Shown in pieces: positions 18,500-42,000 of a stretch of DNA of 59,758 nt. How positions within the stretch are numbered: position 1 is the first letter of the stretch; every line of letters begins with the position of its first letter. The DNA comes from an uncultured Dehalococcoidales bacterium (GTDB lineage: Bacteria; Chloroflexota; Dehalococcoidia; GIF9; AB-539-J10). A program made the translations under genes and the position numbers. The notes beneath the pieces are model-generated. The model was not told the origin of the DNA and ran no database searches. It saw nothing but the letters and a program-made list of their open reading frames with translations. The stretch spans positions 1 to 59,758 of the forward strand of contig CAZJGF010000001.1 in assembly GCA_964545665.1 (NCBI GenBank), read 5' to 3'.

Positions 18500-18527
18500 A
18501 AATCACGAATTAAGGAAGGAGATTGCT

Positions 18528-20291
18528 ATGGCATACGATGCAACAAAACTGAAGGATTGGCAGATTTCGGAAGCGGCTGAAGAAAACATGCCAACTCTCG
18601 ATGAGTGGCGGGGGAGACTGGGCCTGGAGAAGGACGAGATTATTCCCTACGGAAGACTATGCAGGCTGGATTTCATGAAGATTATTGAGCGTCTTAAAGA
18701 CAAGCCGGACGGCAAGTACGTCGAGGTGACTGCTATAACTCCTACGCCACTGGGCGAAGGGAAAACGACGACCACTATGGGCATCTTAGAAGGTATGGGC
18801 AAGCGGGGCAAGAATGTGGGCGGTTGTATACGTCAGCCCTCCGGTGGTCCAACTATGAATATCAAGGGGACTGCTGCTGGGGGAGGCAATGCGCTACTTA
18901 TTCCCATGACCGAATTCTCCATGGGGCTTACTGGTGACATCAACGATATCACCAATGCGCATAACCTAGCTATGGTGGCACTTACTGCGAGGATGCAGCA
19001 TGAGCGTAACTACAACGACGAAGAACTGGCCAAGCGGAGCAGGATGCGCCGCCTGAACGTTGACCCTACGCGAGTGGAGATGGGCTGGGTAATGGATTTC
19101 TGTGCTCAGAGCCTCAGGAACATCGTCGTAGGTCTCGGTGGTCGCATGGATGGCTACCCAATGCAGTCCAAATTCGGTATTAGTGTGGGCTCTGAGCTTA
19201 TGGCTATGCTATCTATAGTCAGGGATCTGGCAGATCTGCGTCAAAGAATGGACGGAATTACTGTAGCCTTCGATAGGGATGGTAATCCTGTTACTACGGG
19301 CGATCTAGAAGTGGGAGGTGCCATGACTGCTTGGATGCGCAACGCCATCAACCCCACACTGATGTGCACGGTGGAGTATCAACCTTGCATGGTGCATGCT
19401 GGTCCCTTTGCCAACATCGCCGTGGGGCAATCCTCCATCATCGGCGACCGCATCGGGCTGAAGATGTTTGATTACCATGTAACTGAGAGCGGCTTCGCCG
19501 CAGATATCGGGTTTGAGAAATTCTGGAATGTCAAGTGTCGCTACAGCGGGCTAAAGCCCCATGTGTCGGTACTTACCACTACTATCAGGGCGCTGAAAAT
19601 GCACGGTGGCGGGTCCAAGGTGGTGGCGGGGCTGCCCTTGCCCGAGGCTTACACCAAAGAGGATATGGGGCTCTTGGAGAAAGGCATTCCCAATATGCTG
19701 CACCACATCAACACGATCAGGACATCGGGCATCAACCCCGTGGTGTGTATCAACTCCTTCCACACTGACACTAAGGAGGAGATTGCCGTGGTGCGCAAGG
19801 CAGCCGAGGCGGCTGGGGCACGTTGTGCGTTCAGCGAGCACTGGCTCAAGGGTGGCGATGGTGCCCTGGAACTGGCAGACGCCGTAATGGAAGCCTGTGA
19901 AGAGAAGAACGATTTCAAATTCCTTTACCCTATGGAAATGAAGCTGCGAGAGCGGGTCGATAAGATCGCCAAGGTGGTCTACGGAGCCGATGGCGTATCC
20001 TGGACTTCTGATGCTGAGGCCAAGGCCAAGATGGTTGAAAGCGACTCAAAATATGATGAATACGCTACCATGATGGTGAAGACCCACCTGAGCTTGACGC
20101 ACGACCCCGCCATTAAGGGTACGCCTAAGGGATGGAGCTTGCCCATTCGCGACGTCTTGATCTACTCCGGGGCGAAATTCCTCTGTCCCTGCGCTGGCGC
20201 CATCAGCCTTATGCCGGGGACAAGCTCTGACCCGGCTTTCAGGAGAGTGGACATAGATACTAAGAGTGGTAAGGTGCAGGGGCTATTCTAG
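18528..20291 (+). CDS. fhs: Formate--tetrahydrofolate ligase
   Basis: Classic Fhs blocks ([28 protein letters not shown]-like regions, C-terminal MPGL-type tail). ATG 18528 after AAGGAAGGAG is preferred to the TTG at 18480, which overlaps cooC. Confidence 0.95.
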
Positions 20292-20341: not shown

Positions 20342-21001
20342 TTGTTGGTAAAAGCCAAGAATATTTGCTTGACTATTGATGGTAAACAGGTGGCAGCTGT
20401 CGAAGGTGACAGAGTGTTATGGGCAGCTTTGGATAATGACATCTACATCCCGAATCTCTGTGCCATCCGGGAGGCATCAGAGCCTTTTGCTTCCTGTCGT
20501 CTTTGCTTTGTGGAAATAGAAGGTGAGGATAGGCCTGTTACAGCCTGCACTACGCCTGTGGCCGAAGGCATGGTGGTTAATACCAAAGGGGCAAAGGCCT
20601 TAAAGCTAACTCGCACTGGTTTCGAGTTGCTCTTAGCCAATTTGCCTCTAGACTGTGCCCATTGCCCCAAAAGCGGTTCTTGTGAAATTCAAAAGATCGC
20701 CAAGCATTTAAGGGTAAAGCTCACCTCAAAGAGGTTCAGGAAGACACTGCGTGAGCTACCCATAGATTCTAGCAGCCCTGTATTTATCTATGATCCTAAC
20801 AAGTGTGTGCTCTGCGGCAAGTGTGTTTGGATATGCCAGGAAAAGTTAGGCATAGGAGCTATTGGATTCGCCCACCGTGGATTCCAGCGAATTGTTACCA
20901 CTTTTGCCGATGAGCCTATTGGCGAATCCCGGTGCCAAGGCTGTGGAGAGTGTGTTAAGGTTTGTCCTGTTGGTGCTTTAGTATTTAAAGGCGGAAATTG
21001 A
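20342..21001 (+). CDS. Stand-alone FeS protein equivalent to the N-terminal domain of NuoG/HydA/FdhA ([2Fe-2S] plus [4Fe-4S] clusters)
   Basis: 219 aa, collinear with residues 1-210 of the FdhA at 37019: IDGK..., IPNLC...CRLC [2Fe-2S], CAHCPKSGSCE, CVLCGKCVWIC, CQGCGECVKVCPVGAL. No catalytic domain follows. The start codon is uncertain (TTG, no clear SD). Confidence 0.75.
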   Translation: MLVKAKNICLTIDGKQVAAVEGDRVLWAALDNDIYIPNLCAIREASEPFASCRLCFVEIEGEDRPVTACTTPVAEGMVVNTKGAKALKLTRTGFELLLANLPLDCAHCPKSGSCEIQKIAKHLRVKLTSKRFRKTLRELPIDSSSPVFIYDPNKCVLCGKCVWICQEKLGIGAIGFAHRGFQRIVTTFADEPIGESRCQGCGECVKVCPVGALVFKGGN

Positions 21002-21060
21002 CACATGGGTTCTTATGTGTTATACGAAGCTGATTTAATATATACTAAGAGGGGTGCTAC

Positions 21061-21945
21061 ATGATTATTATAGGCGAGAACATACATGTTATAGCCAGAG
21101 CAGTTTCCACGGCGATAAAGGAGAGGGATGCCAAGCCAATTCAGGATTTGGCTAAGGCTCAAGCCGAGGCCGCGGTGGATTACATAGACGTGAATGTTGG
21201 TTACTTAAGAAAAGATACCGAGGAAACCATGACATGGATAGTCAACACAATTCAAGAGGTTACTGATTTGCCTTTATCCATAGATACTATGAATCCTGCA
21301 GCCATGGAAGTAGGTCTTAAGCTTTGCAAGAAAAAACCCTTGCTTAATTCCGCTTCAGGAAAGACCGACTCTAAAGAGCAGATGCTCCCGTTAGCAAAGA
21401 AATATAACTGTGATGTAGTTATTTCGGTGATTAACGATAAAGGTATGCCTGCTGAAGGTGATTCAAAGTTGGACAGCATCATGGATACAGTGGCTTACGC
21501 TAACGATCTTGGAATTCCCAATGAGGATATTTGGGGTGACCCCATAGCCCTCCCCGTAAGCACTGCTGGTGAGGGACAGAAGAATGCCTTGGCAACTTAT
21601 GAATTCATAGAGATGCTTCCTGAAGCTTTGCCCGGGCTTAAATCAACGGTAGGGCTTTCGAATATATCTAACGGGGCACCTGAAGAACTTAGGCCTCTGC
21701 TTAACCATGTTTACTTGATAATGTTGGCTAGGAAAGGACTCTATTCATCAATTCACGATGCCTTGGATAAGGATATTATGGGCATATCCAAGGGCGGGAA
21801 GGAGAATCTAGTTGACCTCGTCTACAGAACGTGGGATGGGGAGGACATAGACTTTTCTTCCCTATCCCAGGAGCAAATAGACTACGTCAAGACGACCAAG
21901 GTCCTCACAGGTGAAGTCCTCTATTCGGATGCCTGGCTTGAGTAA
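21061..21945 (+). CDS. acsE: Methyl-THF:corrinoid/iron-sulfur protein methyltransferase
   Basis: Pterin-binding TIM-barrel protein that starts MIIIGENIH and has GLSNISNG near the C-terminal half. It sits directly upstream of the CFeSP small subunit. Confidence 0.85.
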   Translation: MIIIGENIHVIARAVSTAIKERDAKPIQDLAKAQAEAAVDYIDVNVGYLRKDTEETMTWIVNTIQEVTDLPLSIDTMNPAAMEVGLKLCKKKPLLNSASGKTDSKEQMLPLAKKYNCDVVISVINDKGMPAEGDSKLDSIMDTVAYANDLGIPNEDIWGDPIALPVSTAGEGQKNALATYEFIEMLPEALPGLKSTVGLSNISNGAPEELRPLLNHVYLIMLARKGLYSSIHDALDKDIMGISKGGKENLVDLVYRTWDGEDIDFSSLSQEQIDYVKTTKVLTGEVLYSDAWLE

Positions 21946-21957
21946 GGAGGTTTGATA

Positions 21958-22875
21958 ATGGAGTATAAAGCACCAGTTGAAGCATACACTGGAGTAGTTA
22001 GGGAGGAAACTATTGGGACGGGGGAGAAAGCCCTAAAGCTTGGAGGGGAAAACATGCTTCCTTTACATTTCTTTGATGAAGGTTCATTCCCTAATGCGCC
22101 AAGCTTCGCCTTGGAGATATTGGATATGGAGCCTACAGATTGGCCAGAACACTTAGTTGAGACCTTTAAAGATGTGGTATCCGATCCAGTGAAGTGGGCC
22201 AGGAAATGTGAGGAATTTGGTGCGGATGCGGTCAGCATTTTTCTCTTAAGCACTGATCCAGCAGAGAAGGACAGCCCTGCGGATGAAGCGGCAGCACTGG
22301 TAAAAGAAGTGGCTGAGTCAATAAGCATCCCTGTGCTGGTGTACGGCTCTGGGGATGATAAGAAGGATGCTGAGGTTCTCCCCAAGGTTGCTGAGGTGTG
22401 CGACGGGATGAATCTCCTTCTAGGTCCGGTGCTTAAGGAAAACTACGAAGTTGTCGGGAGGGCAATTCTAGAGCATGGACATAAAGCCTGGGCTGAGAGT
22501 CCTTTGGATATCAATTTGCTTAAGGAGTTGAATGTAAAACTGTGTCATTTCCTGCCTCCAGAGAGAATTGTAATCGATCCAGAATCCACAGCGCTGGGCT
22601 ATGGCTTTGAATATGGCTTCACTCTAATGGAAAGGGTGAAGCAGCTTGGTGTAATTATTAAGGATAGCATGACCCAGATGCCCATGATAGCGAATTTAGG
22701 AAGGGAAGTCTGGAAGACAAAGCAAGCCAAGGAGAGCGCAAAGCAAGGCTTGCTGTTTGAGGCAATGACGGCCTTAGGACTTCTTTTAGCCGGGGCAAAT
22801 ATCCTTGTATTGAGGCATCCGGAAAGCATAAAGCTAGTGAAAGAAACTGTTGGAGGCAAAGCATGGCAGAAGTAA
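21958..22875 (+). CDS. cdhD: Corrinoid/iron-sulfur protein small subunit (ACDS delta)
   Basis: About 305 aa, lying between acsE and the CODH gene, with the typical AcsD/CdhD N-terminus (YKAPVEAYTGVV.E..IG). ATG 21958 lies 8 nt after AAGGAGG. Confidence 0.85.
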   Translation: MEYKAPVEAYTGVVREETIGTGEKALKLGGENMLPLHFFDEGSFPNAPSFALEILDMEPTDWPEHLVETFKDVVSDPVKWARKCEEFGADAVSIFLLSTDPAEKDSPADEAAALVKEVAESISIPVLVYGSGDDKKDAEVLPKVAEVCDGMNLLLGPVLKENYEVVGRAILEHGHKAWAESPLDINLLKELNVKLCHFLPPERIVIDPESTALGYGFEYGFTLMERVKQLGVIIKDSMTQMPMIANLGREVWKTKQAKESAKQGLLFEAMTALGLLLAGANILVLRHPESIKLVKETVGGKAWQK

Positions 22876-25181
22876 AAGAACTAGTAAAACAACTAACCAG
22901 GAAGGAACAGGAAATTCGGGAACTGATAAAAGCGGACATCCCCTGGGAGCCAGTAGGGCCTACTCCCATGCCTGAAATCCCGGATCTCAGATCATGGGAT
23001 ATGCGGCTTCTCAAAACGTATGCGCCTTGGTATGCTCCCTTCTGTGATTTGTGCTGTCTCTGCACCTATGGCAAGTGCGATCTCAGTCAGGGGAGAAGAG
23101 GGGCTTGTGGTCTTGATATAGCCACTCAACAAGGGAGGATAATTCTCCTTGCTTGCTTGATGGGGTGCTCTGCTCATGCGGCTCATGCCGGGCACATCCT
23201 GGAATTCCTGATAGAAAAGCACGGCCCGGATAAGAAGATAGACTTGGGCCCATTTGTTGATCTGGAGGCACCAAACATAAGGACGGTTACGGGACTAAAG
23301 CCTGAGACTTTAGGCGACCTTAAGATAGCTATAGAGTATGTCTACAGGGAAATCGCCCATCTTCTTGATTCCACCCATACCGGGCAGGAGGGAGCTGCTC
23401 TGGATTACGAGTCCAAAGCCTTGCATGCCAGCATGCTGGATCACGTAGGCATGGAGGTGGCTGATATCGCTCAGATTGTGGGATTCGATTTCCCCACTTC
23501 GGTTGCTGATACCCCTTTGGTGGATATGGGGTGGAACTCAATTGACAAATCGAAGCCGGTGATCTTGCTAGTTGGGCATAACCCAGCTACTTCATGCACT
23601 CTCATTGATTACCTGCGGGAAAATGACCTTTATGACAAAGTTGAGGTAGCTGGCATCTGTTGCACTGCCCTGGAGACAACAAGATATTCTGATAGAGCAA
23701 AAATTGTAGGCCCTCTTTCGCGGCAACTTTTCTTTGTCCGGACGGGGATTGCCGATGTCATCATGACCGATGAGCAGTGTATCAGGACTGATATGCCCAT
23801 AGAGGCAGACAAGGTTGACTCACGAGTTATCGCCTGTTTGGACAAGGCCATGTATGGACTTGAGGAAGCCAGCGACAGGGAAGTAGATGGACTGGTAAAA
23901 GAAATGGTGGAGGATAAGAAGCATTTCGCCATTCTAGACCCTAAAAAGGCGGCGGAGGTAGCAGCGAAAGTTGCAATGGAGATTGCGCCTCAGAGGAGGA
24001 AGGAATGGATAGCAGAAGAAGAGGCCATAGAGCTAGCTAAGAAATGCACCAATTGCGGTATGTGTGAGAGAGTATGTCCCAATCTTTTCTCTATCGGCGA
24101 TGGTATAACTGAGCTTGCCAAGGGTAATCTTGACCTGATAAGGCAGCAGTTCAATCTGTGTATTGGCTGTGGTAAATGTGAGCAAGAGTGCCCGAACGAT
24201 GTTCCCATCTTTAAGATAATGCAGATAGCAGCGAGCAAGGAGACCTGGAAGATAAGGGCTGGGCGCGGTGCTGTAATGGATACCGAGATAAGGAATGTGG
24301 GAGCACCCATAACTTTGGGCACGATCCCTGGTGTCCTCGCTTTCGTTGGCTGCTCTAACTATCCCGATATAGACGACGTTGCCGACATGGTATATGAGTT
24401 TGCCAAGAGGAAATATATCGTGGTTCTCACCGGTTGTGCTGCTATGGTGGCTGGGATGAAGAAATTTGAGGATGGCAAGACCGTATATGAACTGTTTCCC
24501 CCTGATTTTGATGCCGGCGGGGTAGTGAATGTTGGCTCCTGTGTTTCCAATGCCCATATTACTGGGGCAGCAATAAAGATAGCTAACATCTTCGCTGCTC
24601 TCCCGTTAAGAGCAAACTACGAAGTGATGGCCGATTACGTTCTTAATAGAGTAGGTGCTTGCGGAATAGCCTGGGGAGCGATGTCCCAGAAGGCAGCTTC
24701 CATTGGCACAGGGTGCAACAGGCTAGGTATCCCGGTGGTCCTGGGCCCTCACTCCTCCAAATATAGAAGGCTGTATCTCTCAAGAAATGAGGAGGATGAC
24801 TGGAGAGTAATGGATGCCAGGAAGAGGGAAATTGTCGATAGCGGGGAGCCTTCCCCTGAGCACTTAGCTTATGCGGCAGAGACAAAAGAAAAAGCCATGG
24901 TGATGATCCCCAAACTTTGCATAAGGAAGAACGATACCCCTCAAGGAAGGTCGATAAAGCTTAATCACTATGTCTCTCTATATAAGAAGTATATGGGAGG
25001 TGGGCTTCCTGAGGACCTTCACCTCTTTGTCAGAAGGGATGCTGACATCCCACTAGTGTACAAGAAGGAAGTAAGAGCATACTTGCAGCAAATTGGCTGG
25101 CAGCCTAAGGAACCTGTGGGATTGCCTACCTTGATTGGAACTTATCCCAGCAAGGTTCCTTTGGATGCCGTGATACATTAG
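22863..25181 (+). CDS. cdhA: CODH catalytic subunit, archaeal ACDS-alpha type
   Basis: 772 aa with an internal 2x[4Fe-4S] ferredoxin insert (CTNCGMCERVCPN ... CIGCGKCEQECPN). That insert distinguishes CdhA from the shorter bacterial AcsA/CooS. A CdhB-like gene follows. The start overlaps the cdhD stop. Confidence 0.9.
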   Translation: MAEVKELVKQLTRKEQEIRELIKADIPWEPVGPTPMPEIPDLRSWDMRLLKTYAPWYAPFCDLCCLCTYGKCDLSQGRRGACGLDIATQQGRIILLACLMGCSAHAAHAGHILEFLIEKHGPDKKIDLGPFVDLEAPNIRTVTGLKPETLGDLKIAIEYVYREIAHLLDSTHTGQEGAALDYESKALHASMLDHVGMEVADIAQIVGFDFPTSVADTPLVDMGWNSIDKSKPVILLVGHNPATSCTLIDYLRENDLYDKVEVAGICCTALETTRYSDRAKIVGPLSRQLFFVRTGIADVIMTDEQCIRTDMPIEADKVDSRVIACLDKAMYGLEEASDREVDGLVKEMVEDKKHFAILDPKKAAEVAAKVAMEIAPQRRKEWIAEEEAIELAKKCTNCGMCERVCPNLFSIGDGITELAKGNLDLIRQQFNLCIGCGKCEQECPNDVPIFKIMQIAASKETWKIRAGRGAVMDTEIRNVGAPITLGTIPGVLAFVGCSNYPDIDDVADMVYEFAKRKYIVVLTGCAAMVAGMKKFEDGKTVYELFPPDFDAGGVVNVGSCVSNAHITGAAIKIANIFAALPLRANYEVMADYVLNRVGACGIAWGAMSQKAASIGTGCNRLGIPVVLGPHSSKYRRLYLSRNEEDDWRVMDARKREIVDSGEPSPEHLAYAAETKEKAMVMIPKLCIRKNDTPQGRSIKLNHYVSLYKKYMGGGLPEDLHLFVRRDADIPLVYKKEVRAYLQQIGWQPKEPVGLPTLIGTYPSKVPLDAVIH

Positions 25182-25195
25182 AAAAGGAGGGGAAA

Positions 25196-25750
25196 ATGAG
25201 TGCAGTAATACCGCTTCATCGAGTCAATGTTCTAACCGGAATAAAGTCAGCCAGGGTGATAGAGGACGCCGCACAGTATGCCAACTTGCTCGAAAAAGCA
25301 AAAAGGCCTCTACTGGTGCTTGGTCCTCTGCTATCCGAATGGTCACTTGACGGCAAGCTGGCGATCGAATATGCCGAGGAGATAGCCAAAGCTGCCAATA
25401 TCCCTATATGTGCTACGGCTCACGTTAAGGGCAAGATGGTGGAATTGGGGATGAAGCCTGACAGCGTTTATGACGCTGTAGAGATAGTAAACCACCTAAA
25501 AGATCCTGAATGGCAAGGGGTTAGGAAAGAAGGAAACCACGACCTAGTTATCTTCTTTGGCATAAGGAGCGACCTTGAAGAACAATGCCTTTCTGTCCTT
25601 AAACATTTTGCCTTTAAGCACTTAATAACCATGACCTTGGATAAATATTACTTCCCCAATGCGAATTATTCCCTTCCCAATTTCAAGAGGGAAAAGCAAT
25701 GGAAGGCATTCTTAGAAAGCCTAATAGACAGCTTGAAGAAAGGAGATTAA
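25196..25750 (+). CDS. cdhB: ACDS epsilon subunit
   Basis: 184 aa directly after cdhA. It is collinear with CdhB as I remember it (KAKRPLL, KAANIPI.AT, L.DPEW.G....GN.DLVI..G). Confidence 0.8.
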   Translation: MSAVIPLHRVNVLTGIKSARVIEDAAQYANLLEKAKRPLLVLGPLLSEWSLDGKLAIEYAEEIAKAANIPICATAHVKGKMVELGMKPDSVYDAVEIVNHLKDPEWQGVRKEGNHDLVIFFGIRSDLEEQCLSVLKHFAFKHLITMTLDKYYFPNANYSLPNFKREKQWKAFLESLIDSLKKGD

Positions 25751-25753
25751 GGT

Positions 25754-27004
25754 ATGGCACCAGAGTTTCATACAGACTTAGGACCTCAATATGAAGGTGA
25801 GGTAATAAGGAAAGAAGACCTTTACATGGAGTTTGGAGGGCCGAAGGTAGCTCATAAGTTCGAATTGGTAACCTTGAAGCGACCCGAGGAAATTGAGAAT
25901 GAGAAGGTGGAGCTTATCGGACCGGATATAACTGAACTGCAGCCTTATGATGACGCAACTGGCGAAGGTGGGAGCTACCCTATAGCTGTCCTGGTCGAGG
26001 TTGCCGGAGCAGAGTTAGACAAGGATGCCGAGGCAATCATCGAAAGGAAGATCCATATGTATACGAACTATACTCAGGGTTGGTATCACATGAATCAGCG
26101 TCAGGATGCCTGGTATAGGATGAACAAAGAGGCTGCAAAGAAAGGGTTCAACTCTTTAAGAGAGTTAGGGGAAATTTTCAATTTGCTTTTCACCTCGGAG
26201 ATGCCCATTATTGAAGCAATACAAACTACTATTATTACTGACGATGAGAGAATAGCGAAACTCTTGCCAGACGCATTAGCTACTTATAAGGCAAGGGACG
26301 ACAGGGCGCTAAGCCTTAGGGATGAGGATGTAGATACATTTTATGGCTGTGTCCTTTGCCAGAGCTTCGCTCCCACCCACGTCTCCATCATAACCCCCGA
26401 TAGAATCGCCAATTGTGGAGCTATAAATTGGTTTGATGGCAGGGCCGCAGCCAAGATTGACCCTGAGGGACCTATATTCGCCATACCTAAGGGGGAGCTT
26501 ATAGACCACGTAAAGGGTGAATATGATGGAGCGAACAAAGTCGAATATGAGAGGTCTATGGGGACTTACGATCGGGTTTATCTCTACAGCGCCTTCGAGC
26601 ATCCCCACACCTCCTGTGGCTGTTTTGAAGCCATTGTTTTCTATATCCCTGAGGCGGACGGATTCGGACTGGTGCACAGAGATTTTAAGGGCCCAACTGT
26701 GATTGGGGAAACCTTCTCCCACATGGCCGGTGACACCTCCGGGGGCAGGCAGGTAGAAGGTCGCTTGGGAACCGGCTTGGAGCAGCTACGCTCCCCGAAG
26801 TTCATTCAGGCAGACGGAGGGCGAAAAAGGATGGTATGGATGCCCAGGGAGATACTGGACAGATATAAGGAAGCTTTTGAAGCTGAGGGGCTATATGACA
26901 AGATACCCACAGAGAACGAGGTTAAAACCGTTGATGAGTTAATGCCATGGTTAGAAGAGCATCAGCACCCTTGGATAATGGGGGAGGTTGAGCTTCCCGA
27001 GTGA
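25754..27004 (+). CDS. cdhC: Acetyl-CoA synthase catalytic subunit, short (archaeal CdhC-like) form
   Basis: A-cluster ligand blocks CVLCQSFAPTH and HTSCGCFEA (Cys-Gly-Cys). At 416 aa it lacks the N-terminal domain of bacterial AcsB. Confidence 0.9.
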   Translation: MAPEFHTDLGPQYEGEVIRKEDLYMEFGGPKVAHKFELVTLKRPEEIENEKVELIGPDITELQPYDDATGEGGSYPIAVLVEVAGAELDKDAEAIIERKIHMYTNYTQGWYHMNQRQDAWYRMNKEAAKKGFNSLRELGEIFNLLFTSEMPIIEAIQTTIITDDERIAKLLPDALATYKARDDRALSLRDEDVDTFYGCVLCQSFAPTHVSIITPDRIANCGAINWFDGRAAAKIDPEGPIFAIPKGELIDHVKGEYDGANKVEYERSMGTYDRVYLYSAFEHPHTSCGCFEAIVFYIPEADGFGLVHRDFKGPTVIGETFSHMAGDTSGGRQVEGRLGTGLEQLRSPKFIQADGGRKRMVWMPREILDRYKEAFEAEGLYDKIPTENEVKTVDELMPWLEEHQHPWIMGEVELPE

Positions 27005-27107
27005 GACCGTTTGAGCAAAGCGAAGGAATCCCTGAGCTGTAAATAAGAGAGAAAGGTAGCCCTCGTCCATGCTATGCTTTGTCCTGGCGAGGGGCAGGAG
27101 GTTTGTT

Positions 27108-28472
27108 ATGCCGGTATCAGGCTCTGAGTTAGTAAAGTTACTGCCAAAAAGGAAGCCATGTAGGGACTGCGGCTTTCCCACTTGCTTCGCCTTTGCCATG
27201 AAGCTGGCTTCAGGCGGAGCTAGTGTAGATAAGTGCCCTTATCTGGATGAGGAAACAAAAGCCAGGATAACAGATCTTCTCGCTCCGCCCATAAGGCTCG
27301 TAACCATTGGCTCGGGGGAAAATAAGCTAGAGATGGGAAATGAGGAGGTAGTATACAGACATGAGAAGACTTACTACCATCCACCGGGAATCGGTCTACT
27401 TATCTCCGATAAGGAGGCTGACGACAAGATTGACGAGAAGATAAGGAAGATAAAAGAGTTGCAGTTCCCGTGGATAGGATTAATGCTAAAGGCGGATTTC
27501 TTGGCTCCCTACTTTGAATCGGGTGATAAGGACAAATTTCTAGCTTTGGTCAAGAAAGTGTACCAATCAACCGATGTGCCAATGATTTTGATCTCAGAAG
27601 ATATGGATGCCTTATTTTCTGCCAGGGATATATGTGCTGATAGAAATCCGCTTCTTTACCCCATAACCAAGGAAAACATAGAGGAGGCAATCCCAAAGAT
27701 CAAGGAGAAACCTAGCCCGATAGGAATTCGAGGAGATAGTCTAGAGTCGCTGGTGCCTTTGACTATGAAATTAAAGGATGCCGGGATTGAAGATGTTGTC
27801 CTAGACCCGGGTTCCAAGAAGCTAATGGAGGCGATAAGAGACCAGACTTTTATCAGGAGGGCAGCTATAAAGCAAGGGTTTAGGCCGCTTGGCTATCCTA
27901 CCATTGCCTTTCCCTGCTTCATAGCTAACGACGGGCTAGAGGAAGCCATGGCTGGCTCAACCTTCATAAACAAGTTCACTAGCATTATTGTATTCTCCGA
28001 TTTCGACCAGTATTCCTTGCTCCCCACCTTAATACAAAGGCTCAATATCTATACTGACCCTCGTTTCCCCATGGGGGTGGATGAGAAATATTACGAGGTA
28101 TTGGAACCTGATGAATATTCCCCCGTTCTTGTCACGTCAAACTGGGCCTTGACTTACTTCCTGGTATCATCGGCTGTCGAGGCTACTAGAATTCCTGGCT
28201 ATGTTTGCGTAAAGGATGCGGAAGGGCTTGGTGTCCTTACAGCTTGGGCAGCAGGCAAGTTTGACGGCGAATCTGTAGGAGAATTCATAAAGAAAAGTGG
28301 AATCGCAGACCGTGTGAAACACAGAACGCTAATTATCCCGGGTAAGGTAGCCAGGATTAAAGGCGCCCTTGAAGATGCTTTGAATCTTGAATGGGAGGTT
28401 GTAGTCGGTCCCAGAGAAATAACTGCGTTGGGAAAGTTCCTTCCAGACGTTGCTAAAAGTCTAAGGAAATAA
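27108..28472 (+). CDS. acsC: Corrinoid/iron-sulfur protein large subunit (ACDS gamma)
   Basis: N-terminal [4Fe-4S] motif CRDCGFPTCFAFAMKLA. ATG 27108, 6 nt after AGGAGG, is preferred to the track start at 27069. Confidence 0.85.
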   Translation: MPVSGSELVKLLPKRKPCRDCGFPTCFAFAMKLASGGASVDKCPYLDEETKARITDLLAPPIRLVTIGSGENKLEMGNEEVVYRHEKTYYHPPGIGLLISDKEADDKIDEKIRKIKELQFPWIGLMLKADFLAPYFESGDKDKFLALVKKVYQSTDVPMILISEDMDALFSARDICADRNPLLYPITKENIEEAIPKIKEKPSPIGIRGDSLESLVPLTMKLKDAGIEDVVLDPGSKKLMEAIRDQTFIRRAAIKQGFRPLGYPTIAFPCFIANDGLEEAMAGSTFINKFTSIIVFSDFDQYSLLPTLIQRLNIYTDPRFPMGVDEKYYEVLEPDEYSPVLVTSNWALTYFLVSSAVEATRIPGYVCVKDAEGLGVLTAWAAGKFDGESVGEFIKKSGIADRVKHRTLIIPGKVARIKGALEDALNLEWEVVVGPREITALGKFLPDVAKSLRK

Positions 28473-28475
28473 GAG

Positions 28476-28988
28476 TTGATAGGGACACAGGAGAAAGAGC
28501 AATTAGCCGAGACTTTGTCCTCATACGGTAAGGAAAGGAAAAGCTTAATTCCCTTATTGGAGGAAGTTCAGGTGGACCTGGGGTATCTTCCCAAGGAAGT
28601 GATGCAAGAGATTGCTACTTTCTTGGCCATTCCTGAAGTTGAGGTCTATGGAGTCGCCACCTTCTATAACCAATTTCGCTTTGTTCCGCTGGGGAAGCAC
28701 CATGTTAGAGTTTGCATGGGAACCGCATGTCATCTAGCAGGGGGAAAACTTATCCTAGAAGCTTTAGAAAGGGAGCTTGGCATTAAGGTGGGAGAAACTA
28801 GGGAGGATGGGGAATTCAGCCTAGAGCGAGTTGCTTGCGTTGGTTGCTGCATGCTGGCTCCGGTAATGATAGTAGGGGATGGAATTCATCCTAGGATGAC
28901 GCCTTTCAAGGCAGAGGAAGCCTTAATACCCTACAGGCAAAAATCCGATGGGGCAAGCTCAAGTGAAGAGCAAGCTGGGGCACAGTAG
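28476..28988 (+). CDS. nuoE: NuoE/HydC-like [2Fe-2S] thioredoxin-fold subunit (copy 1)
   Basis: VCMGTACHLAGG ... VACVGCCMLAPV cluster motifs. 170 aa, directly upstream of a NuoF-like gene. Confidence 0.85.
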   Translation: MIGTQEKEQLAETLSSYGKERKSLIPLLEEVQVDLGYLPKEVMQEIATFLAIPEVEVYGVATFYNQFRFVPLGKHHVRVCMGTACHLAGGKLILEALERELGIKVGETREDGEFSLERVACVGCCMLAPVMIVGDGIHPRMTPFKAEEALIPYRQKSDGASSSEEQAGAQ

Positions 28989-29001
28989 GAAAGCGTAGTG
29001 A

Positions 29002-30930
29002 ATGACGTTTCAGGAAATCCAGAACCGGGCGAAATCCGAATGGGAGAACCTTCAGAATAACGCCTATATCCTCATTGGCACAGCCACTTGTGGTAGGGCG
29101 GCTGGTGCTTTAAGCACCCTTGAGGCTTTCCAACAAGAGTTATCGCGGCGGAATATCGAGGTTAAGACCATCCAAGTTGGATGTATGGGGCTGTGCCATG
29201 CTGAGCCATTGGTCACTATATCCAAGCCTGATTCTTTCCGCGTCGTCTACGGGAACGTGACCTCCGAGCTTGTTCCCCGCCTGGTAGAAGGCTACATTGT
29301 GGGAGATGACCCCTGCCTTGAGCTTGCACTGGGTACCCTGGAGGGAGGCCAGGGAGAAGCCCCCTATATTCCGGAACTTCCTAGGTTTGAACACGAGCTC
29401 CGCCTTGTGTTCCGCCGCTGCGGCTACATCGACCCGGTGAATATAAATCATTACATCGCCAATGGTGGATATAGCAGCTTGGAAAAGGCATTAAGGAGGC
29501 AACCCGAAGAGATAATTGAGGAGGTAAAAAACTCAGAGTTGCGGGGGCGAGGTGGGGCTGGATTTCCTACTGGGCTGAAGTGGGAGTTTTGCCACAGCGC
29601 TAAAGGAGATCCGAAGTATGTGGTGTGTAATGCTGATGAGGGAGATCCAGGCGCATTTATGGACCGAGTTGTCTTGGAAAGTGACCCTCAGCAAGTTATC
29701 GAGGGAATGATTATTGGGGCTTATGTCATAAGTGCTAAGCAGGGTTACATCTATGTCCGTGTCGAGTATCCTTTAGCCGTTGAGCGGGTAAAGATTGCCT
29801 TAAAGCAAGCAGAGGAACTGGGTCTCTTGGGAGATAATATCCTAGAAAGCGGTTTTGGTTTCCATATAGAGCTAGCCATGGGAGCTGGTGCTTTCGTCTC
29901 TGGCGAGGAGACGGCACTCATGGCGGCTGTGGAAGGAGAGATGAGCACGCCCAGGCCGAGACCTCCTTATCCTGCTCAGGCGGGCTTATGGGGTAAACCT
30001 ACATTGCTGAATAACGTGAAAACTTTCGCCAACGTCCCGTTGATAATCGAGCGGGGGGCAGATTGGTTTTCCTCGATTGGCACTGAGGGAAGCAAGGGAA
30101 CAGCGGTGTTCACCCTGGCAGGCAAGGTTAACAATAAAGGATTGACCGAAGTGCCTATGGGAACAACGTTCCGTGAGATCATTTATGACATCGGTGGGGG
30201 AATCCCCGAATCCAAGTCATTTAAGGCAATACAGATTGGTGGTCCCTCAGGAGGCTGTATCCCAGCAAGCTTGCTTGATACTCCCATCGACTATGACTCC
30301 CTTCGTCAAGCTGGCTCCATGATGGGCTCGGGGGGACTAATTGTAATGGATGAGGATAACTGCATGGTTGATGCTGCAAGGTTTTTCTTGGATTTCACCA
30401 CAAAGGAGTCCTGTGGCAAATGCACCATGTGTCGTCTAGGAACCTTGCAAATGCACCAAATTCTTGAGGCTATTGTAGCCGGCAGAGCTGAACCTGAAGA
30501 CCTTAACCTCCTCTTTGAATTAGCTGAAGACGTCAAAGCAGGGTCGCTTTGTGCCTTAGGAGGAACAGCCCCAAATCCCATTCTTACTACTCTACGTTAC
30601 TTCCGAGATGAGTATGAAGCACATGTAATGGAAAAGCGCTGTCCTGCCAAGGTATGTCCTGAGCTCACCGCCTACTATATCCTTCCCGACAAGTGTGAAA
30701 GAAGCTGTGAGCATTGCGTGCTTACCTGTCCTACCGAGGCTGTTAAAGGCGAAAAAGGGGAGATAAAGGTTATTGATCAAGAGAAATGCGTTAATTGCGG
30801 CACTTGCCTGGATGTCTGCCCTCCTGAGTATGATGCGGTAGTGAAGCTATCGCCTATTAGCCAACTCCCCCCGGAAGATGCAGCAGCTAAAGAAAGGGGC
30901 ATAGCGCAGCGAGCACAACAGGTCGTATAG
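29002..30930 (+). CDS. nuoF: NuoF/HydB-like NADH- and FMN-binding subunit with a C-terminal 2x[4Fe-4S] ferredoxin domain (copy 1)
   Basis: GRGGAGFPTGLKWEF (FMN), ESCGKCTMCRLG and SLCALGGTAPNP (N3 cluster), and a C-terminal CEHCVLTCPTEA / CVNCGTCLDVCP. The N-terminal thioredoxin-like domain carries Cys motifs. Confidence 0.9.
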   Translation: MTFQEIQNRAKSEWENLQNNAYILIGTATCGRAAGALSTLEAFQQELSRRNIEVKTIQVGCMGLCHAEPLVTISKPDSFRVVYGNVTSELVPRLVEGYIVGDDPCLELALGTLEGGQGEAPYIPELPRFEHELRLVFRRCGYIDPVNINHYIANGGYSSLEKALRRQPEEIIEEVKNSELRGRGGAGFPTGLKWEFCHSAKGDPKYVVCNADEGDPGAFMDRVVLESDPQQVIEGMIIGAYVISAKQGYIYVRVEYPLAVERVKIALKQAEELGLLGDNILESGFGFHIELAMGAGAFVSGEETALMAAVEGEMSTPRPRPPYPAQAGLWGKPTLLNNVKTFANVPLIIERGADWFSSIGTEGSKGTAVFTLAGKVNNKGLTEVPMGTTFREIIYDIGGGIPESKSFKAIQIGGPSGGCIPASLLDTPIDYDSLRQAGSMMGSGGLIVMDEDNCMVDAARFFLDFTTKESCGKCTMCRLGTLQMHQILEAIVAGRAEPEDLNLLFELAEDVKAGSLCALGGTAPNPILTTLRYFRDEYEAHVMEKRCPAKVCPELTAYYILPDKCERSCEHCVLTCPTEAVKGEKGEIKVIDQEKCVNCGTCLDVCPPEYDAVVKLSPISQLPPEDAAAKERGIAQRAQQVV

Positions 30931-31694
30931 TGGTTAGGAAAATTGTTTCCACAGGAAGAGGAGGAGCCGGGAAATCAACTTTCGTCGCTCTTGTTAGCAA
31001 GTACCTGAAACCTCCAACATTGCTCATTGACCTTGATCCCGATCTCAGCCTCGCCGATATGCTTGGACTGGATTTTCAAAGGGAAGGGAAAAGGACTGTT
31101 TGCGAAGCGCTTTACGATGTCATTGAGAAAAGAAAAAGTAACATAAGCCCCACGATTACGACACATGATTCAATGGAATCTTTGCTATGGAGCGATTGTT
31201 TATACGAAGGAAAGAAAATTGACCTGATCAGCCTAGGAACAAAACTTACCGAAGGCTGTCTTTGTGCTGCAGATGAACTGCTCAGGAAAACAATTCCTAG
31301 GCTGGCTAAGAACTATACCAACGTGCTAATAGACTCACCAGCTGGGGTGGAACATCTGAATCGAAACATAGTGTCAGACATAAATGACCTCTTTGTCCTA
31401 TGCGATCCCTCTGACAAATCTTTGAAGCACATACCAAGGATCAAAGAAATTATCAAGCAAGTAGGAATTAGATACGGTCACTTCTACCTGGTGGCAAACT
31501 ATGAGTGCACCGAAGAGGCAGAGAGGTATCTACAGAATACAGGTGAAATCTACCTGGGCAGAATAGACTACGACGCTCGTTTGCAGCAGTACAACTTGGA
31601 GGGCAAATCTCTTCTCGAGTTGCCAGAGGATTCAGTTGCTTGTTTGTCTGTGAGAAGGATTCTGACGAAGGCAGGTTATCAAATCGGATCTTAA
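30930..31694 (+). CDS. CooC/AcsF-like ATPase with variant Walker A (tandem paralog 1)
   Basis: N-terminal STGRGGAGKST instead of GKGGVGKT, with the CxC motif retained (EGCLCAADE). The GTG start overlaps the nuoF stop. Confidence 0.7.
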   Translation: MVRKIVSTGRGGAGKSTFVALVSKYLKPPTLLIDLDPDLSLADMLGLDFQREGKRTVCEALYDVIEKRKSNISPTITTHDSMESLLWSDCLYEGKKIDLISLGTKLTEGCLCAADELLRKTIPRLAKNYTNVLIDSPAGVEHLNRNIVSDINDLFVLCDPSDKSLKHIPRIKEIIKQVGIRYGHFYLVANYECTEEAERYLQNTGEIYLGRIDYDARLQQYNLEGKSLLELPEDSVACLSVRRILTKAGYQIGS

Positions 31695-31701
31695 TTTGGC
31701 T

Positions 31702-32520
31702 ATGGGAAGAGTAATTGTTTCCACAGGGAGAGGAGGAGCAGGGAAATCGACTTTTGTGGCTTTGGCTAGCAAGTATTTGAATTCGCCGAAGCTGCTGATA
31801 GACCTCGACCCTGATGAGAGTCTAGCTGACATGCTTGGAGTAGATTTGAACGAGAAAGGCAAAAAGACCATCTCAAGCGCACTCTACGACGCTATAGAGG
31901 AGAACAAAGGGGTCGGTCGCTCGGGCTACAATCTCCTATCCGAGGTACTGCAACCTGTTTTGTACCGAGGGGCAGAATTTGACCTTATCGCCCTGGGAAC
32001 GAAGTTCACCGTGGGTTGTTATTGTGCTCCAGACGCAGTGCTCAAAGACTTCATCCCCACTCTGGTTAAAGATTATGACGAGGTACTAGTAGACGCACCT
32101 GCGGGGTTGGAGCACTTCAATCGCAAGGTGGTGGTAGATATAGATGACCTGTTTGTGCTTCTGGATCCATCCGAGAAGTCCATCAAGCATATAGAAAGAG
32201 TCAAAGATATTACCAGGGAACTGAAGGTTGGTTACAATCATCTGTACCTGATAGGGAACTACAGATTTACTGAGGAAACGGAAGAGTATTTACGAAGTGC
32301 GGGAGAAGCCTATCTAGGGAAGATAGACTACGATCCTAATGTCAAACGATATAATCTGGAAGGGAGATCTCTTCTTGAGTTGCCTGGGGATTCTCCCGCT
32401 GCCCTTTCTGTAAAGAGGATTCTAGCGAAGGCAGGCTATAGAATTACGGATGGGAATCTTGCTAGTGAGTCGAGCCAGAAAATAGCCAAGAGTTCACCTT
32501 TACGGGAGACTAGGAGGTGA
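31702..32520 (+). CDS. CooC/AcsF-like ATPase with variant Walker A (tandem paralog 2)
   Basis: STGRGGAGKST and VGCYCAPDA motifs. It is collinear with 30930-31694 at both protein and DNA level. ATG 31702 is preferred to TTG 31696. Confidence 0.7.
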   Translation: MGRVIVSTGRGGAGKSTFVALASKYLNSPKLLIDLDPDESLADMLGVDLNEKGKKTISSALYDAIEENKGVGRSGYNLLSEVLQPVLYRGAEFDLIALGTKFTVGCYCAPDAVLKDFIPTLVKDYDEVLVDAPAGLEHFNRKVVVDIDDLFVLLDPSEKSIKHIERVKDITRELKVGYNHLYLIGNYRFTEETEEYLRSAGEAYLGKIDYDPNVKRYNLEGRSLLELPGDSPAALSVKRILAKAGYRITDGNLASESSQKIAKSSPLRETRR

Positions 32521-32726: not shown

Positions 32727-32756
32727 TTGATAGGCTTCGGCCTAAGAGGTTAAAAT
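32727..32756 (+). promoter_or_regulatory. Candidate promoter upstream of the cNMP-domain gene / FDH unit
   Basis: TTGATA (32727-32732), an 18-nt spacer, then TAAAAT (32751-32756), about 58 nt upstream of ATG 32814. Confidence 0.35.
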
Positions 32757-32813
32757 TGTGTGCTTAGCAATAAATAAGCCGGGGATTAGGGACTTGTACA
32801 GGAGGTGACAACG

Positions 32814-33907: not shown

Positions 33908-33921
33908 CTTTGGAGGCTGGG

Positions 33922-37002: not shown

Positions 37003-37018
37003 GTTTGATTACGAGCAG

Positions 37019-41936: not shown

Positions 41937-42000
41937 AAAGGTGAGGGAAAGGAGTGAGCGGATTAGGCGATTATTAGAACCAGTCGCCGGAGTAAGGTAG

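Follow-up and report, generated by a model that had tools for sequence, protein, structure and literature searches.

Free ferredoxin is the electron-exchange partner of the archaeal ACDS (CdhABCDE; 3cf4, 8riu, 9c0q). The bacterial "hybrid" CODH/ACS has in common with it CdhB, a short CdhC and a CdhA that contains the E/F-cluster insert, but unlike archaeal ACDS, the hybrid bacterial operons compared here carry Bfu genes. Schut et al. (2022; PMC9304861) argue that a BfuA that lacks a catalytic domain passes on electrons from extra subunits of the same cluster, and a "sandwich" argument was used for two predicted systems, Codh-Bfu and Por-Bfu. In Codh-Bfu (predicted Type 2; Acetohalobium arabaticum and Clostridium cellulovorans), BfuABC clusters with Ni-CODH genes located between bfuB and bfuA, and CO/CO2 was proposed as the third substrate of the NAD(H)/ferredoxin bifurcating core. 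The CODH in question is monofunctional and of the CooS type, comes with additional FeS subunits and is represented by 4 sequences from Firmicutes. In Por-Bfu (Dehalococcoides and relatives, the same phylum as the organism studied here), a short BfuA of approximately 210 aa and BfuBC are added to the operon of a low-potential CO2-handling enzyme, pyruvate:ferredoxin oxidoreductase.

Three further systems contain comparable subunits. NiFe-HydABCSL of Acetomicrobium mobile (7t2r/7t30) is the Bfu enzyme of known structure in which BfuA has no catalytic site and is the wire to separate catalytic subunits of a hydrogenase. In the bifurcating formate dehydrogenase HylCBA-FdhF2 of Gottschalkia acidurici, a BfuA homologue without an active site is likewise combined with a separate catalytic subunit, a molybdo/tungstopterin FDH, and its genes are often found beside fhs. 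Finally, HoxU of the HoxEFU diaphorase (e.g. 5xf9) is a stand-alone protein of approximately 240 aa that equals the N-terminus of NuoG, so a NuoG N-terminus without catalytic domain is a known protein type.

We analysed a stretch of 59,758 nucleotides (the window) from a Dehalococcoidia bacterium that encodes a hybrid CODH/ACS composed of archaeal CdhABC and bacterial AcsCDE. Genes for a BfuA-like protein, NuoE1 and NuoF1 lie in the same putative operon, on the same strand and at the places given in a preliminary description of this DNA (Table 1). What had been called a cdhABCDE operon, however, is a hybrid one with the order acsE-acsD-cdhA-cdhB-cdhC-acsC, preceded by cooC-fhs and followed by two cooC genes. 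As described, nuoE1 and nuoF1 directly follow acsC, with a gap of 3 nt between the acsC stop codon and nuoE1, and the distance from bfuA to nuoE1 is 7.5 kb instead of eight. Weak promoter-like sites were found ahead of the first cooC (17662-17690) and after the second downstream cooC (32727-32756), and the window sequence contains no convincing internal terminator within the putative operon. Our reading, which we hold with middling confidence on the basis of sequence and gene order, is that BfuA, NuoE1 and NuoF1 form a BfuABC module without a catalytic domain that is transcribed together with the hybrid CODH/ACS and serves this enzyme specifically.

Table 1. Genes of the putative CODH/ACS operon, with window coordinates.
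Gene and product	Coordinates	Strand	Evidence or remark
cooC-type Ni-insertion ATPase, first gene of putative operon	17705..18499	+	Pfam CbiA/ParA/NifH-like
fhs, formate-tetrahydrofolate ligase	18480..20291	+	PF01268, E 2e-212
bfuA, 219-aa BfuA/HoxU-like FeS protein (NuoG/HydA/FdhA N-terminal part only)	20342..21001	+	
acsE, methyl-THF:corrinoid methyltransferase	21061..21945	+	Pterin_bind/CdhD
acsD, corrinoid FeS protein small subunit	21952..22875	+	PF03599
cdhA, archaeal-type CODH alpha subunit with ferredoxin-like E/F-cluster insert	22863..25181	+	E 2e-258 (8riu_A), 7e-216 (3cf4_A)
cdhB, CODH epsilon subunit	25196..25750	+	PF02552
cdhC, acetyl-CoA synthase beta subunit of the short archaeal type (416 aa)	25754..27004	+	PF03598 + PF19436
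acsC, corrinoid FeS protein large subunit	27069..28472	+	PF03599 + PF04060
bfuC (nuoE1), thioredoxin-like [2Fe-2S] subunit	28476..28988	+	PF01257, E 5e-50
bfuB (nuoF1), 642-aa NAD(H)/FMN subunit	29002..30930	+	PF01512, SLBB, PF10589, C-terminal 2x[4Fe-4S]
cooC-like maturation ATPase	30930..31694	+	AAA_31/CbiA; 1-nt overlap with nuoF1 stop
another cooC-like maturation ATPase, closing the putative operon	31696..32520	+	

The preliminary description had taken the 219-aa protein for only the N-terminal FeS part of HydA, FdhA or NuoG, and both Pfam and alignment agree with this. Fer2_4, NADH-G_4Fe-4S_3 and two 4Fe-4S ferredoxin motifs were the only domains found; residues 8-216 align with positions 4-207 in HydA1 of Thermoanaerobacter kivui (8a6t_A; E 7e-49) and share 45% identity with positions 6-209 of the FdhA encoded in the window. 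Its TTG codon is the earliest possible start downstream of a stop codon, so the reading frame cannot extend further 5'. That it is a gene fragment was rejected, as the best 120 database homologues (72-96% identical) are all 194-257 aa long. The predicted ligands are Cys40/52/55/69 for the [2Fe-2S] cluster, Cys105/108/114 for the N5-like site, and two CxxCxxCxxxC motifs at 155-165 and 198-208. Since the N-terminal [2Fe-2S] and N5-like domain are kept, this BfuA resembles Type 3 and not Type 2. It corresponds to the N-terminal part of A. mobile HydA (692 aa), whose C-terminal domain contacts HydS.

NuoE1 is a full PF01257 protein with Cys80/85/121/125. NuoF1 contains an N-terminal domain, an N3-type [4Fe-4S] site and, at the C-terminus, a 2x[4Fe-4S] ferredoxin domain; Cys454, His541, Cys547 and Cys552 make up its His/Cys site. 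It matches over its full length the BfuB subunits of solved bifurcating enzymes (9n5u_B NfnB, 9bov_B, 7t2r_B NiFe-HydB and 7q4v_B HydB; E 1e-211 to 1e-226). It has the same length and cluster motifs as A. mobile BfuB (E 1e-225) and retains the equivalents of C438, H525, C531 and C536 as well as both C-terminal [4Fe-4S] motifs. Because NuoF1 is a full-length BfuB/HydB-type subunit, the three genes form a BfuABC core without catalytic domain, and the electron-input core proposed earlier can be assigned to A, C and B subunits of the HydABC/Bfu type. Two ligand positions deviate in the window copy: Leu101 takes the place of the canonical His in the N5-like site of BfuA, and BfuB has Val at the position of A. 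mobile C476. The HxxxCxxCxxxxxC motif was found in 119 of the best 120 BfuA homologues, 82 with His and 28 with Leu.

The CO:NAD+ coupling suggested earlier probably covers only part of the reaction. Additional FeS domains at both ends and a His/Cys site, as found in NuoF1, are typical of bifurcating BfuB, so the expected chemistry is three-way, between NAD(H), ferredoxin and CODH; the CODH/ACS would be linked to both NAD(H) and ferredoxin and would probably bifurcate electrons. The proposed electron partner is CdhA, which may, with CdhB, provide the docking site; stoichiometry and physiological direction are likewise proposals. Electrons from the C-cluster would leave through the FeS clusters of CdhA, including the surface-exposed ferredoxin-like E/F insert with its CxxCxxCxxxC motifs, and continue along the FeS chain of BfuA to the FMN of BfuB, from which some would go to NAD+ and others to ferredoxin. 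When acetyl-CoA is formed, NADH and reduced ferredoxin would jointly drive CO2 reduction. The E0' of CO2/CO is -520 mV (Table 1 of PMC9304861); since this is not a mid-potential couple, bifurcation would be thermodynamically sensible only at a very low steady-state CO level or with coupling to ACS.

As in Codh-Bfu, the CODH genes lie between bfuB and bfuA, and both systems are known as predictions. Unlike in Codh-Bfu, the CODH is here an archaeal-type CdhA/CdhB in a complete acetyl-CoA synthase operon of Chloroflexota and Desulfobacterota, and bfuA is 7.5 kb away from bfuCB. The preliminary description knew of no characterised arrangement of this kind. Experimentally this is right, but the prediction of a CooS-type Codh-Bfu dates from 2022 (PMC9304861), and NuoEFG-like genes had already been noted in the vicinity of Ni-CODH/WLP clusters (PMC6344411, PMC6305446, PMC3971608), those near Ni-CODH operons in 2018-2019.

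In the window, FDH and MTHFR have redox modules of their own: FdhA begins with a BfuA-like domain and is encoded behind NuoE2 and NuoF2-GltD, and MTHFR is encoded with HdrA-MvhD-MetVF. CODH/ACS is therefore the only redox enzyme of the operon without an assigned partner. This also bears on the idea that the module is a Hyl-type (HylCBA) bifurcating partner of a formate dehydrogenase, such as the FdhA 6 kb downstream, with the position at fhs marking the formate branch. The 219-aa gene does lie directly behind fhs, the HylCBA-FdhF2 genes of Acetothermia are found together with fhs (PMC9586279), fdhA is found upstream of fhs-bfuA in two loci (L053, L058), and the identity to the FdhA N-terminus is 45% (see above). 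However, the window's FdhA is already equipped, the window does not encode an FdhF2-like catalytic subunit without the N-terminal domain, and in most related loci fdhA is absent from the neighbouring 7-10 kb, whereas nuoEF always stay behind acsC. We consider this explanation very unlikely.

Conservation was assessed in MAGs of Dehalococcoidia and Deltaproteobacteria/Thermodesulfobacteriota. Of 50 related loci, 49 have nuoE behind acsC (spacing 0-65 nt), and nuoF follows in 35/39; four loci lost nuoF and kept nuoE. Starting from the NuoF side, acsC-nuoE precedes 11 of 12 metagenomic NuoF1 homologues (at least 68% identity and at least 1.5 kb of upstream sequence); one close homologue (L092) sits elsewhere. 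This arrangement is far beyond chance. What comes after nuoEF-cooC varies between a hydrogenase, MetV-RnfC and FDH. It is very improbable that the module is a diaphorase of the HoxEFU or NiFe-HydABC kind, belonging to a cytoplasmic [NiFe] hydrogenase and feeding H2 electrons to the pathway, even though NiFe small and large subunits with a protease follow nuoEF-cooC in six loci (L009, L023, L024, L030, L036, L064), and L014 has a more distant small subunit there. JGI labels many 219-aa homologues "bidirectional [NiFe] hydrogenase diaphorase subunit", and the protein matches HoxU (5xf9_B, 242 aa), from an NAD-reducing hydrogenase of known structure, with E 5e-28. Yet the window contains no homologue of that hydrogenase and no adjacent hoxYH, its only NiFe genes being Mvh-type fragments beside Hdr, 22 kb away, and HoxF lacks the C-terminal 2x[4Fe-4S] domain of NuoF1 (PMC9304861).

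The position of bfuA is less constant than the acsC-nuoEF junction, and this speaks in part against the preliminary description, which had named absence or variability of the 219-aa gene in otherwise syntenic operons as a refutation. The complete triplet was found in 22 of 35 loci with both flanks available; bfuA adjoins acsE in 32 of 54 acs loci and is not upstream of acsE in the other 22. Its most constant upstream neighbour is fhs, with or without acs following, and this linkage is at least as tight as that to acsE. The order cooC-fhs-bfuA recurs, bfuA closes a cooC-folD-fhs-bfuA operon with no acs behind it in L076-L078 and L081-L082, and some genomes have bfuA far from acs, as in MAG CAZLAL01 with the two units on separate contigs. 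No Bfu genes were found near stand-alone CdhA paralogues.

Such bfuA genes, traveling with cooC-folD-fhs even where acs lies elsewhere, are consistent with a free-standing BfuABC, a soluble NAD(H):ferredoxin oxidoreductase that would bind no third enzyme, would balance the two electron pools needed by the Wood-Ljungdahl pathway and would only be co-regulated with the pathway genes. The same applies to L109 (acsB-acsC-cooC-acsD-folD-nuoE-nuoF-bfuA; bfuA 227 aa), to the orphan bfuA-nuoE-nuoF set without obvious partner in L086, to the absence of Rnf genes from the window, and to the interpretation of such NuoEF sets as NADH-regenerating modules by Hug et al. and Suzuki et al. Against this, a BfuA without catalytic domain is the wire to extra subunits in all characterised or predicted Bfu enzymes (PMC9304861), and electron transfer from NADH to ferredoxin is uphill unless a third reaction is coupled. 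Co-regulation alone also hardly explains the acsC-nuoE spacing and the insertion into cdhA/cdhB described below, and we regard a free-standing core as rather unlikely.

A second Bfu lineage (NuoF approximately 50% and BfuA 31-37% identical to the window module) was found in other gene orders. On three contigs (L015, L083, L094), nuoE'-nuoF'-bfuA' is inserted between cdhA and cdhB, and in L084, L085, L088 and L089 the set is directly upstream of acsE; the L086 set also belongs to this lineage. In further orders, L016 has nuoF-bfuA upstream of acsE, and L109 has the whole set in its acs cluster. Several independent gene orders tie Bfu modules to cdhA/cdhB, a convergence that favours our reading. 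Since related genomes attach such modules to the operon in several ways, the window module most likely serves CODH/ACS. The insertion beside cdhA and cdhB, and not acsC/acsD, also argues against a module that makes low-potential electrons to reactivate the corrinoid FeS protein (AcsCD) or the ACS A-cluster without catalytic exchange with CODH. The start of nuoE directly behind acsC in nearly all loci would suit such a role, and the window has no recognisable RACo-like activator, but a bifurcating module of 1000 residues and 10 clusters is big for repair, and we think it most improbable. The sisters of the second lineage are the porGDAB-linked modules (L087, L090) called Por-Bfu by Schut et al. 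(PMC9304861), and the NuoF proteins from CODH/ACS operons (L015, L083, L084, L088) are 68-80% identical to these POR-linked ones.

The supercluster of Wood–Ljungdahl genes found in the window by ORF listing and Pfam scans is dense and lies on the + strand (see table). Its CODH/ACS genes encode a CdhA with an E/F-cluster insert, a CdhB epsilon subunit and a short CdhC alongside acsC, acsD and acsE, all of which mark the hybrid type (archaeal CdhABC combined with bacterial AcsCDE) described in PMC7325909; the ferredoxin-like E/F insert of CdhA is intact. The preliminary description was right about the CODH/ACS context of the three Bfu genes, but the operon it had called cdhABCDE is a hybrid acsED-cdhABC-acsC operon. 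A promoter/terminator scan gave fewer sites than in shuffled controls, so the boundaries of the 13-gene operon are set by gene spacing alone. For both CdhA and the 219-aa protein, the best homologues are encoded in Dehalococcoidia/Chloroflexota MAGs.

Features of the supercluster and its surroundings in the window
Feature	Position (nt)	Strand
MttB-family methyltransferase, 502 aa	15550-17058	+
cooC	17705-18499	+
fhs	18480-20291	+
bfuA, 219-aa FeS protein	20342-21001	+
acsE	21061-21945	+
acsD	21952-22875	+
cdhA	22863-25181	+
cdhB	25196-25750	+
cdhC, 416 aa	25754-27004	+
acsC	27069-28472	+
nuoE1	28476-28988	+
nuoF1	29002-30930	+
cooC-like genes (two)	30930-32520	+
cNMP-binding regulator	32805-33293	+
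FDH module: nuoE2, NuoF-GltD fusion (NuoF2, 1030 aa), full-length FdhA	33452-39697	+
MTHFR (MetF), lone paralogue	39750-40673	-
cNMP-binding histidine kinase and two receiver proteins	40806-42799	+
HdrA-like pair, MvhD, MetV, MetF	42803-47649	
MTHFR (MetF), paralogue in the HdrA-MvhD-MetV-MetF set	46738-47649	+
Flavo-FeS protein, 1480 aa	48169-52611	+
MvhD and NiFe hydrogenase subunit ORFs	52511-54807	+
Flavo-FeS protein, 938 aa	54941-57757	-

No earlier start codon separates the bfuA ORF from the stop that precedes it, and the ORF ends with TGA 59 nt before acsE; thus it is not part of a longer gene. Its product carries Fer2_4 (E 2e-21), NADH-G_4Fe-4S_3 (PF10588) and Fer4/Fer4_Nqo3 domains with two ferredoxin-type 4Fe-4S motifs (Pfam), its 16 Cys lie in the expected motifs, and it has the domains that define BfuA in the Bfu family of HydABC-type electron-bifurcating enzymes (IPR001041, IPR017896). 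Residues 8-216 match T. kivui HydA1 at E 7e-49 (its residues 4-207); similar alignments were obtained with T. maritima HydA, A. mobile NiFe-HydA, R. capsulatus FdsA and HoxU; identity to residues 6-209 of the FdhA in the window is 45%. A fragment or pseudogene of a longer HydA or FdhA was excluded by the position of the start codon together with the length of the best 120 homologues, all of which measure 194-257 aa. In the N5-like HxxxCxxCxxxxxC cluster (residues 101-114, window 20642-20683), the canonical His is replaced by Leu. This motif was found in 119 of the 120 homologues, with His in 82, Leu in 28, Gln in 6, Arg in 2 and Cys in 1, and the His within the CxHC pair is kept in 102 of the 119.

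NuoE1 is complete and belongs to PF01257 (E 5e-50; 2-141 of 145 profile positions). With Cys80/85/121/125, it is a NuoE-like thioredoxin-type [2Fe-2S] protein as defined for BfuC (IPR002023). BfuB is defined by FMN/NADH 51-kDa, SLBB, Nuo51-type [4Fe-4S] and ferredoxin-type domains (IPR011538, IPR019554, IPR019575, IPR017896) (PMC9304861), and the corresponding PF01512, PF10531, PF10589 and C-terminal Fer4 families were all detected on NuoF1. The whole protein matches solved bifurcating BfuB/HydB chains (9n5u_B NfnB, 9bov_B, 7t2r_B and 7q4v_B; E 1e-211 to 1e-226), whereas matches to complex I Nqo1/NuoF or FdsB are far weaker and shorter. The alignments to the solved BfuB chains begin at residue 21-23 and span Cys30/61/65; Pfam made no PF01257 call on the N-terminus at E<=0.001. 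The C-terminus bears the motifs CxxxCxxCxxxCP and CxxCxxCxxxCP. NuoF1 thus has the extra clusters of BfuB that are missing in non-bifurcating homologues, namely those of the N-terminal [2Fe-2S] domain and two C-terminal [4Fe-4S] clusters. The ligands of the unusual B2 site in BfuB are a conserved His (H525), C438, C476 or Thr, C531 and C536 (PMC9304861, A. mobile numbering). Cys454, His541, Cys547 and Cys552 of NuoF1 align to C438, H525, C531 and C536, and the position of C476 is occupied by Val, which is neither Cys nor Thr. ORF structure, Pfam domains, homologue length and matches to structure chains hence bear out the claim of three genes without a catalytic domain around CODH/ACS, and homology at the sequence level was decisive for the fold.

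In the predicted Codh-Bfu enzymes, CODH genes lie between bfuB and bfuA, and the window shows a like order, bfuA-acsE acsD cdhA cdhB cdhC acsC-bfuC bfuB (nuoE1 being bfuC and nuoF1 bfuB). Codh-Bfu combines a monofunctional CooS-type CODH with extra FeS subunits in Firmicutes, whereas the window has CdhA/CdhB within an ACS operon in Chloroflexota. Moreover, the Type 2 BfuA of Codh-Bfu is devoid of clusters A3 and A5, while BfuA of the window has [2Fe-2S] and PF10588 domains, which we infer from the figure legends of PMC9304861 to correspond to A5/A3. HoxEFU, the diaphorase of NAD-reducing [NiFe] hydrogenase, offers another parallel, as HoxU (about 240 aa) equals the NuoG N-terminus and chain 5xf9_B (242 aa) matches BfuA residues 10-217 (E 5e-28). 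However, HoxF lacks the C-terminal 2x[4Fe-4S] domain that NuoF1 has, and hoxYH is part of the HoxEFU operon; no homologues of the NiFe subunits of related locus L036 were found in the window. The N-module of complex I contains a full NuoG with a C-terminal molybdopterin-like domain and has the membrane and Q-module genes nuoA-D/H-N next to it, whereas the bfuA ORF cannot exceed 219 aa, and no nuo membrane genes are among the annotated window ORFs.

Conservation of the gene order was analyzed by a CdhA scan with one genome per species followed by tblastn with the window proteins. The hybrid CODH/ACS gene order of the window was found in 72 loci (CdhA 68-92% identical) from Dehalococcoidia and from Deltaproteobacteria/Syntrophaceae/Thermodesulfobacteriota MAGs; a search of the protein database with CdhA returned only homologues >=80% identical and did not widen the survey to other phyla. 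Where enough downstream sequence was available, nuoE follows acsC in 49 of 50 loci, mostly with a gap of 0-65 nt and in seven loci after cooC. The nuoF gene is present in 35/39 loci, and four loci (L019, L025, L027, L057) have kept nuoE and lost nuoF. The 219-aa gene lies upstream of acsE in 32/54 loci, and L018 and L036 are examples of acs loci that lack it; among the 35 with both flanks, 22 have the full triplet and 10 only nuoEF. Conservation of the triplet, proposed earlier as a check, accordingly holds for nuoE after acsC and only partly for the triplet and for bfuA. With the window Bfu proteins, tblastn found no Bfu genes in three loci with a stand-alone cdhA (L020, L037, L038), whose ORFs were listed. 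The block fhs...bfuA-acsE...acsC-nuoE-nuoF-cooC-cooC is common to Dehalococcoidia and to loci L029-L035, L050, L056 and L065 of Deltaproteobacteria/Syntrophaceae/Thermodesulfobacteriota MAGs, with 60-80% protein identity. This suggests that the complete block, Bfu genes included, was transferred between phyla.

The acsC-nuoE junction is constant, unlike the genes beyond nuoEF-cooC, which comprise a NiFe hydrogenase in six loci (L014 has a more distant match to the small subunit), a MetV-RnfC fusion plus MetV in three loci (L011, L018, L067) and the FDH module in the window. Synteny gives no support to a NiFe hydrogenase as the partner of BfuABC, which is very unlikely; we rejected this candidate as the enzyme is downstream in 6-7 related loci, variable, and absent from the window. 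An FDH (Hyl-like) partner is equally improbable, again without support from synteny, and was dismissed as the main reading because most related loci lack fdhA, and FdhA of the window carries a fused BfuA domain and comes with a NuoE2 and NuoF2-GltD of its own. MTHFR was also rejected: MetVF goes with HdrA-MvhD in the window and with the MetV-RnfC fusion in the three loci that carry it.

Look-ups of homologues of the 219-aa protein gave contiguous operons, cooC-(folD)-fhs-bfuA-acsE...acsC-nuoE-nuoF, in L073-L075 and L079. In L076-L078 and L081-L082, by comparison, a cooC-folD-fhs-bfuA operon ends at bfuA, with acs elsewhere, and in MAG CAZLAL01 the two units are split between contig 40 (fhs-bfuA) and contig 164 (cdhA...nuoEF). 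These separate units indicate that the link of bfuA to fhs is no weaker than its link to acsE, and a bfuA missing from the acs locus is not necessarily missing from the genome. In a metagenome scan with NuoF1, which is independent of CdhA, we counted homologues >=68% identical with >=1.5 kb of upstream sequence. Eleven of these 12 are preceded by acsC-nuoE (the exception being L092); homologues <=61% identical occur in FDH or HydABC-like contexts.

A second Bfu lineage was found in L015. Besides nuoE1-nuoF1 after acsC, this locus has a complete nuoE'-nuoF'-bfuA' set inserted between cdhA and cdhB. Its BfuA' has 211 aa and no PF10588, and a search with it uncovered a second family of short BfuA proteins. 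The same insertion is present in L083 and L094; all three loci are the reverse of the Codh-Bfu arrangement, with bfuCBA sandwiched between the CODH genes. In L084, L085, L088 and L089, nuoE'-nuoF'-bfuA' is directly upstream of acsE and followed by acsD-cdhA-DUF166-cdhB-cdhC-acsC, except that L085 ends within acsD. The order porGDAB-nuoE'-nuoF'-bfuA' in L087 and L090 equals the Por-Bfu arrangement of Schut et al., and L086 holds an orphan set. NuoF identity is 65-79% within lineage 1 (window, L015 copy after acsC, L032, L046) and 65-88% within lineage 2, compared to about 50% between them (BfuA 31-37%). In addition, nuoF-bfuA lies upstream of acsE in L016, and L109 has acsB-acsC-cooC-acsD-folD-nuoE-nuoF-bfuA (BfuA 227 aa; NuoF 55% identical to NuoF1). 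Judging from the two lineages and the varied gene orders, Bfu modules without a catalytic domain have come to lie within or next to CODH/ACS operons on at least two independent occasions, and at least four gene orders have resulted.

The DUF166 gene (PF02593; L084 12876-13571, L088 12893-13591, L089 7983-8681) occupies the position between cdhA and cdhB that the Bfu set takes in L015 and L083. NuoF' of L084 (6317-7999) has 560 aa with no C-terminal Fer4 recorded, and its 85% identical relative in L088 has 638 aa with Fer4; the L084 protein has either been truncated or represents a variant that does not bifurcate.

Schut et al. (2022; PMC9304861) argue that the sole role of BfuA is to pass electrons of a third substrate on to the BfuBC core, and that a BfuA without a catalytic domain has its partner encoded in the same cluster, as for NiFe-HydSL, Wor, Bam, Por and the predicted Codh-Bfu. 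CODH/ACS is the sole redox enzyme in the window operon, FDH and MTHFR having their own separate modules, and by this rule BfuABC would serve CODH/ACS. In the best-supported reading, to which we give about even chances, the hybrid CODH/ACS would exchange electrons with NAD(H) and ferredoxin by way of BfuABC, which would probably contact CdhA. We would expect three-way coupling and not a simple CO:NAD+ oxidoreductase, because NuoF1 has the features that separate bifurcating BfuB from Nqo1, FdsB and HoxF. To make thermodynamic sense, the effective potential of the CODH/ACS half-reaction would have to fall between those of NAD(H) and ferredoxin. Schut et al. made this argument for very low CO concentrations (PMC9304861); extending it to enzyme-bound CO consumed by ACS is our own step. 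Somewhat more tentatively, the hybrid CODH/ACS of Dehalococcoidia and some Desulfobacterota may itself be bifurcating, with BfuABC bound to CdhAB and modules recruited at least twice (the window and the Por-Bfu-like lineages). NADH and reduced ferredoxin would then together supply one electron pair for acetyl-CoA synthesis, and acetyl-CoA cleavage would charge both pools.

BfuABC could also act on its own as an NADH:ferredoxin oxidoreductase that shares no more than its regulation with the pathway, which would fit the fhs-bfuA units away from acs as well as L086 and L109. We consider this rather unlikely, since it leaves the insertions between cdhA and cdhB unexplained and is energetically awkward. 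A role in corrinoid/A-cluster reactivation is speculative and has the slimmest prospects of all. The placement of the Bfu genes is real and non-random, and their assignment to CODH/ACS is plausible and strengthened by the convergent gene orders.

NuoG/F/E-like proteins (COG1034/1894/1905) were listed by Inoue et al. (2019) among those tied to WLP-type Ni-CODH loci, clade A included, with their function left open. Suzuki et al. (2018) noted a nuoEF set near the hybrid CODH/ACS cluster of NPL-UPA2, and Hug et al. (2013) pointed out that the Chloroflexi genome RBG-2 has two NuoEF operons whose function was unclear. Codh-Bfu was predicted by Schut et al., whose BfuB tree has 57 clades, for CooS-type enzymes of Firmicutes only (PMC9304861). 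The literature searched contained no proposal of a Bfu-CdhAB/ACS complex or enzyme. As a variant, the proposed Bfu-CODH/ACS falls into a class of enzymes that had been predicted before.

In energy models of the Wood–Ljungdahl pathway, the carbonyl branch is paid wholly in reduced ferredoxin. If half of the electrons were exchanged with NAD(H) through a bifurcating module, acetyl-CoA synthesis would cost a different amount of ferredoxin and hence of ion gradient, and the energy yield of acetyl-CoA oxidation would change as well. The organisms in question are Dehalococcoidia, which the literature describes as widespread in sediments and the subsurface and as abundant there. The bifunctional archaeal-type CODH/ACS would join the list of Bfu partners and provide a concrete, testable case of how an archaeal CdhAB was integrated into the redox metabolism of bacteria. 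Suitable gene sets for co-expression can be read from the convergent gene orders.

Several other features of the supercluster were observed. In NuoF2, which is 57% identical to NuoF1, a GltD/NfnB-like Fer4_20 plus FAD/NAD(P)H domain replaces the C-terminal 2x[4Fe-4S] domain, and FdhA (892 aa) has its own BfuA-like N-terminus; from these domains, the FDH module looks like one with two sites for pyridine nucleotides, the first of them for NAD(H). One of the two MTHFR paralogues stands alone right after fdhA. The downstream MvhD gene is followed by short, apparently split NiFe hydrogenase small-subunit ORFs (107 aa and 122 aa) and a 382-aa ORF that matches the large-subunit profile in its C-terminal third only; these ORFs may stem from an Mvh-type hydrogenase that is frameshifted or decaying, or from an error in the assembly. 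The two large flavo-FeS proteins combine HdrA-like and GltD-like Pyr_redox_2, Fer4_20 and ferredoxin domains and adjoin the Hdr/MvhD/MetVF genes. The MttB-family ORF just upstream of the cooC-fhs operon is unbroken, and its product could be a source of methyl groups (from quaternary amines) for the pathway. Finally, the cNMP-binding regulator separates the CODH/ACS unit from the FDH unit, and the cNMP-binding histidine kinase with its two receiver proteins lies between the FDH and Hdr/MetVF units, which suggests cyclic-nucleotide control of the supercluster.
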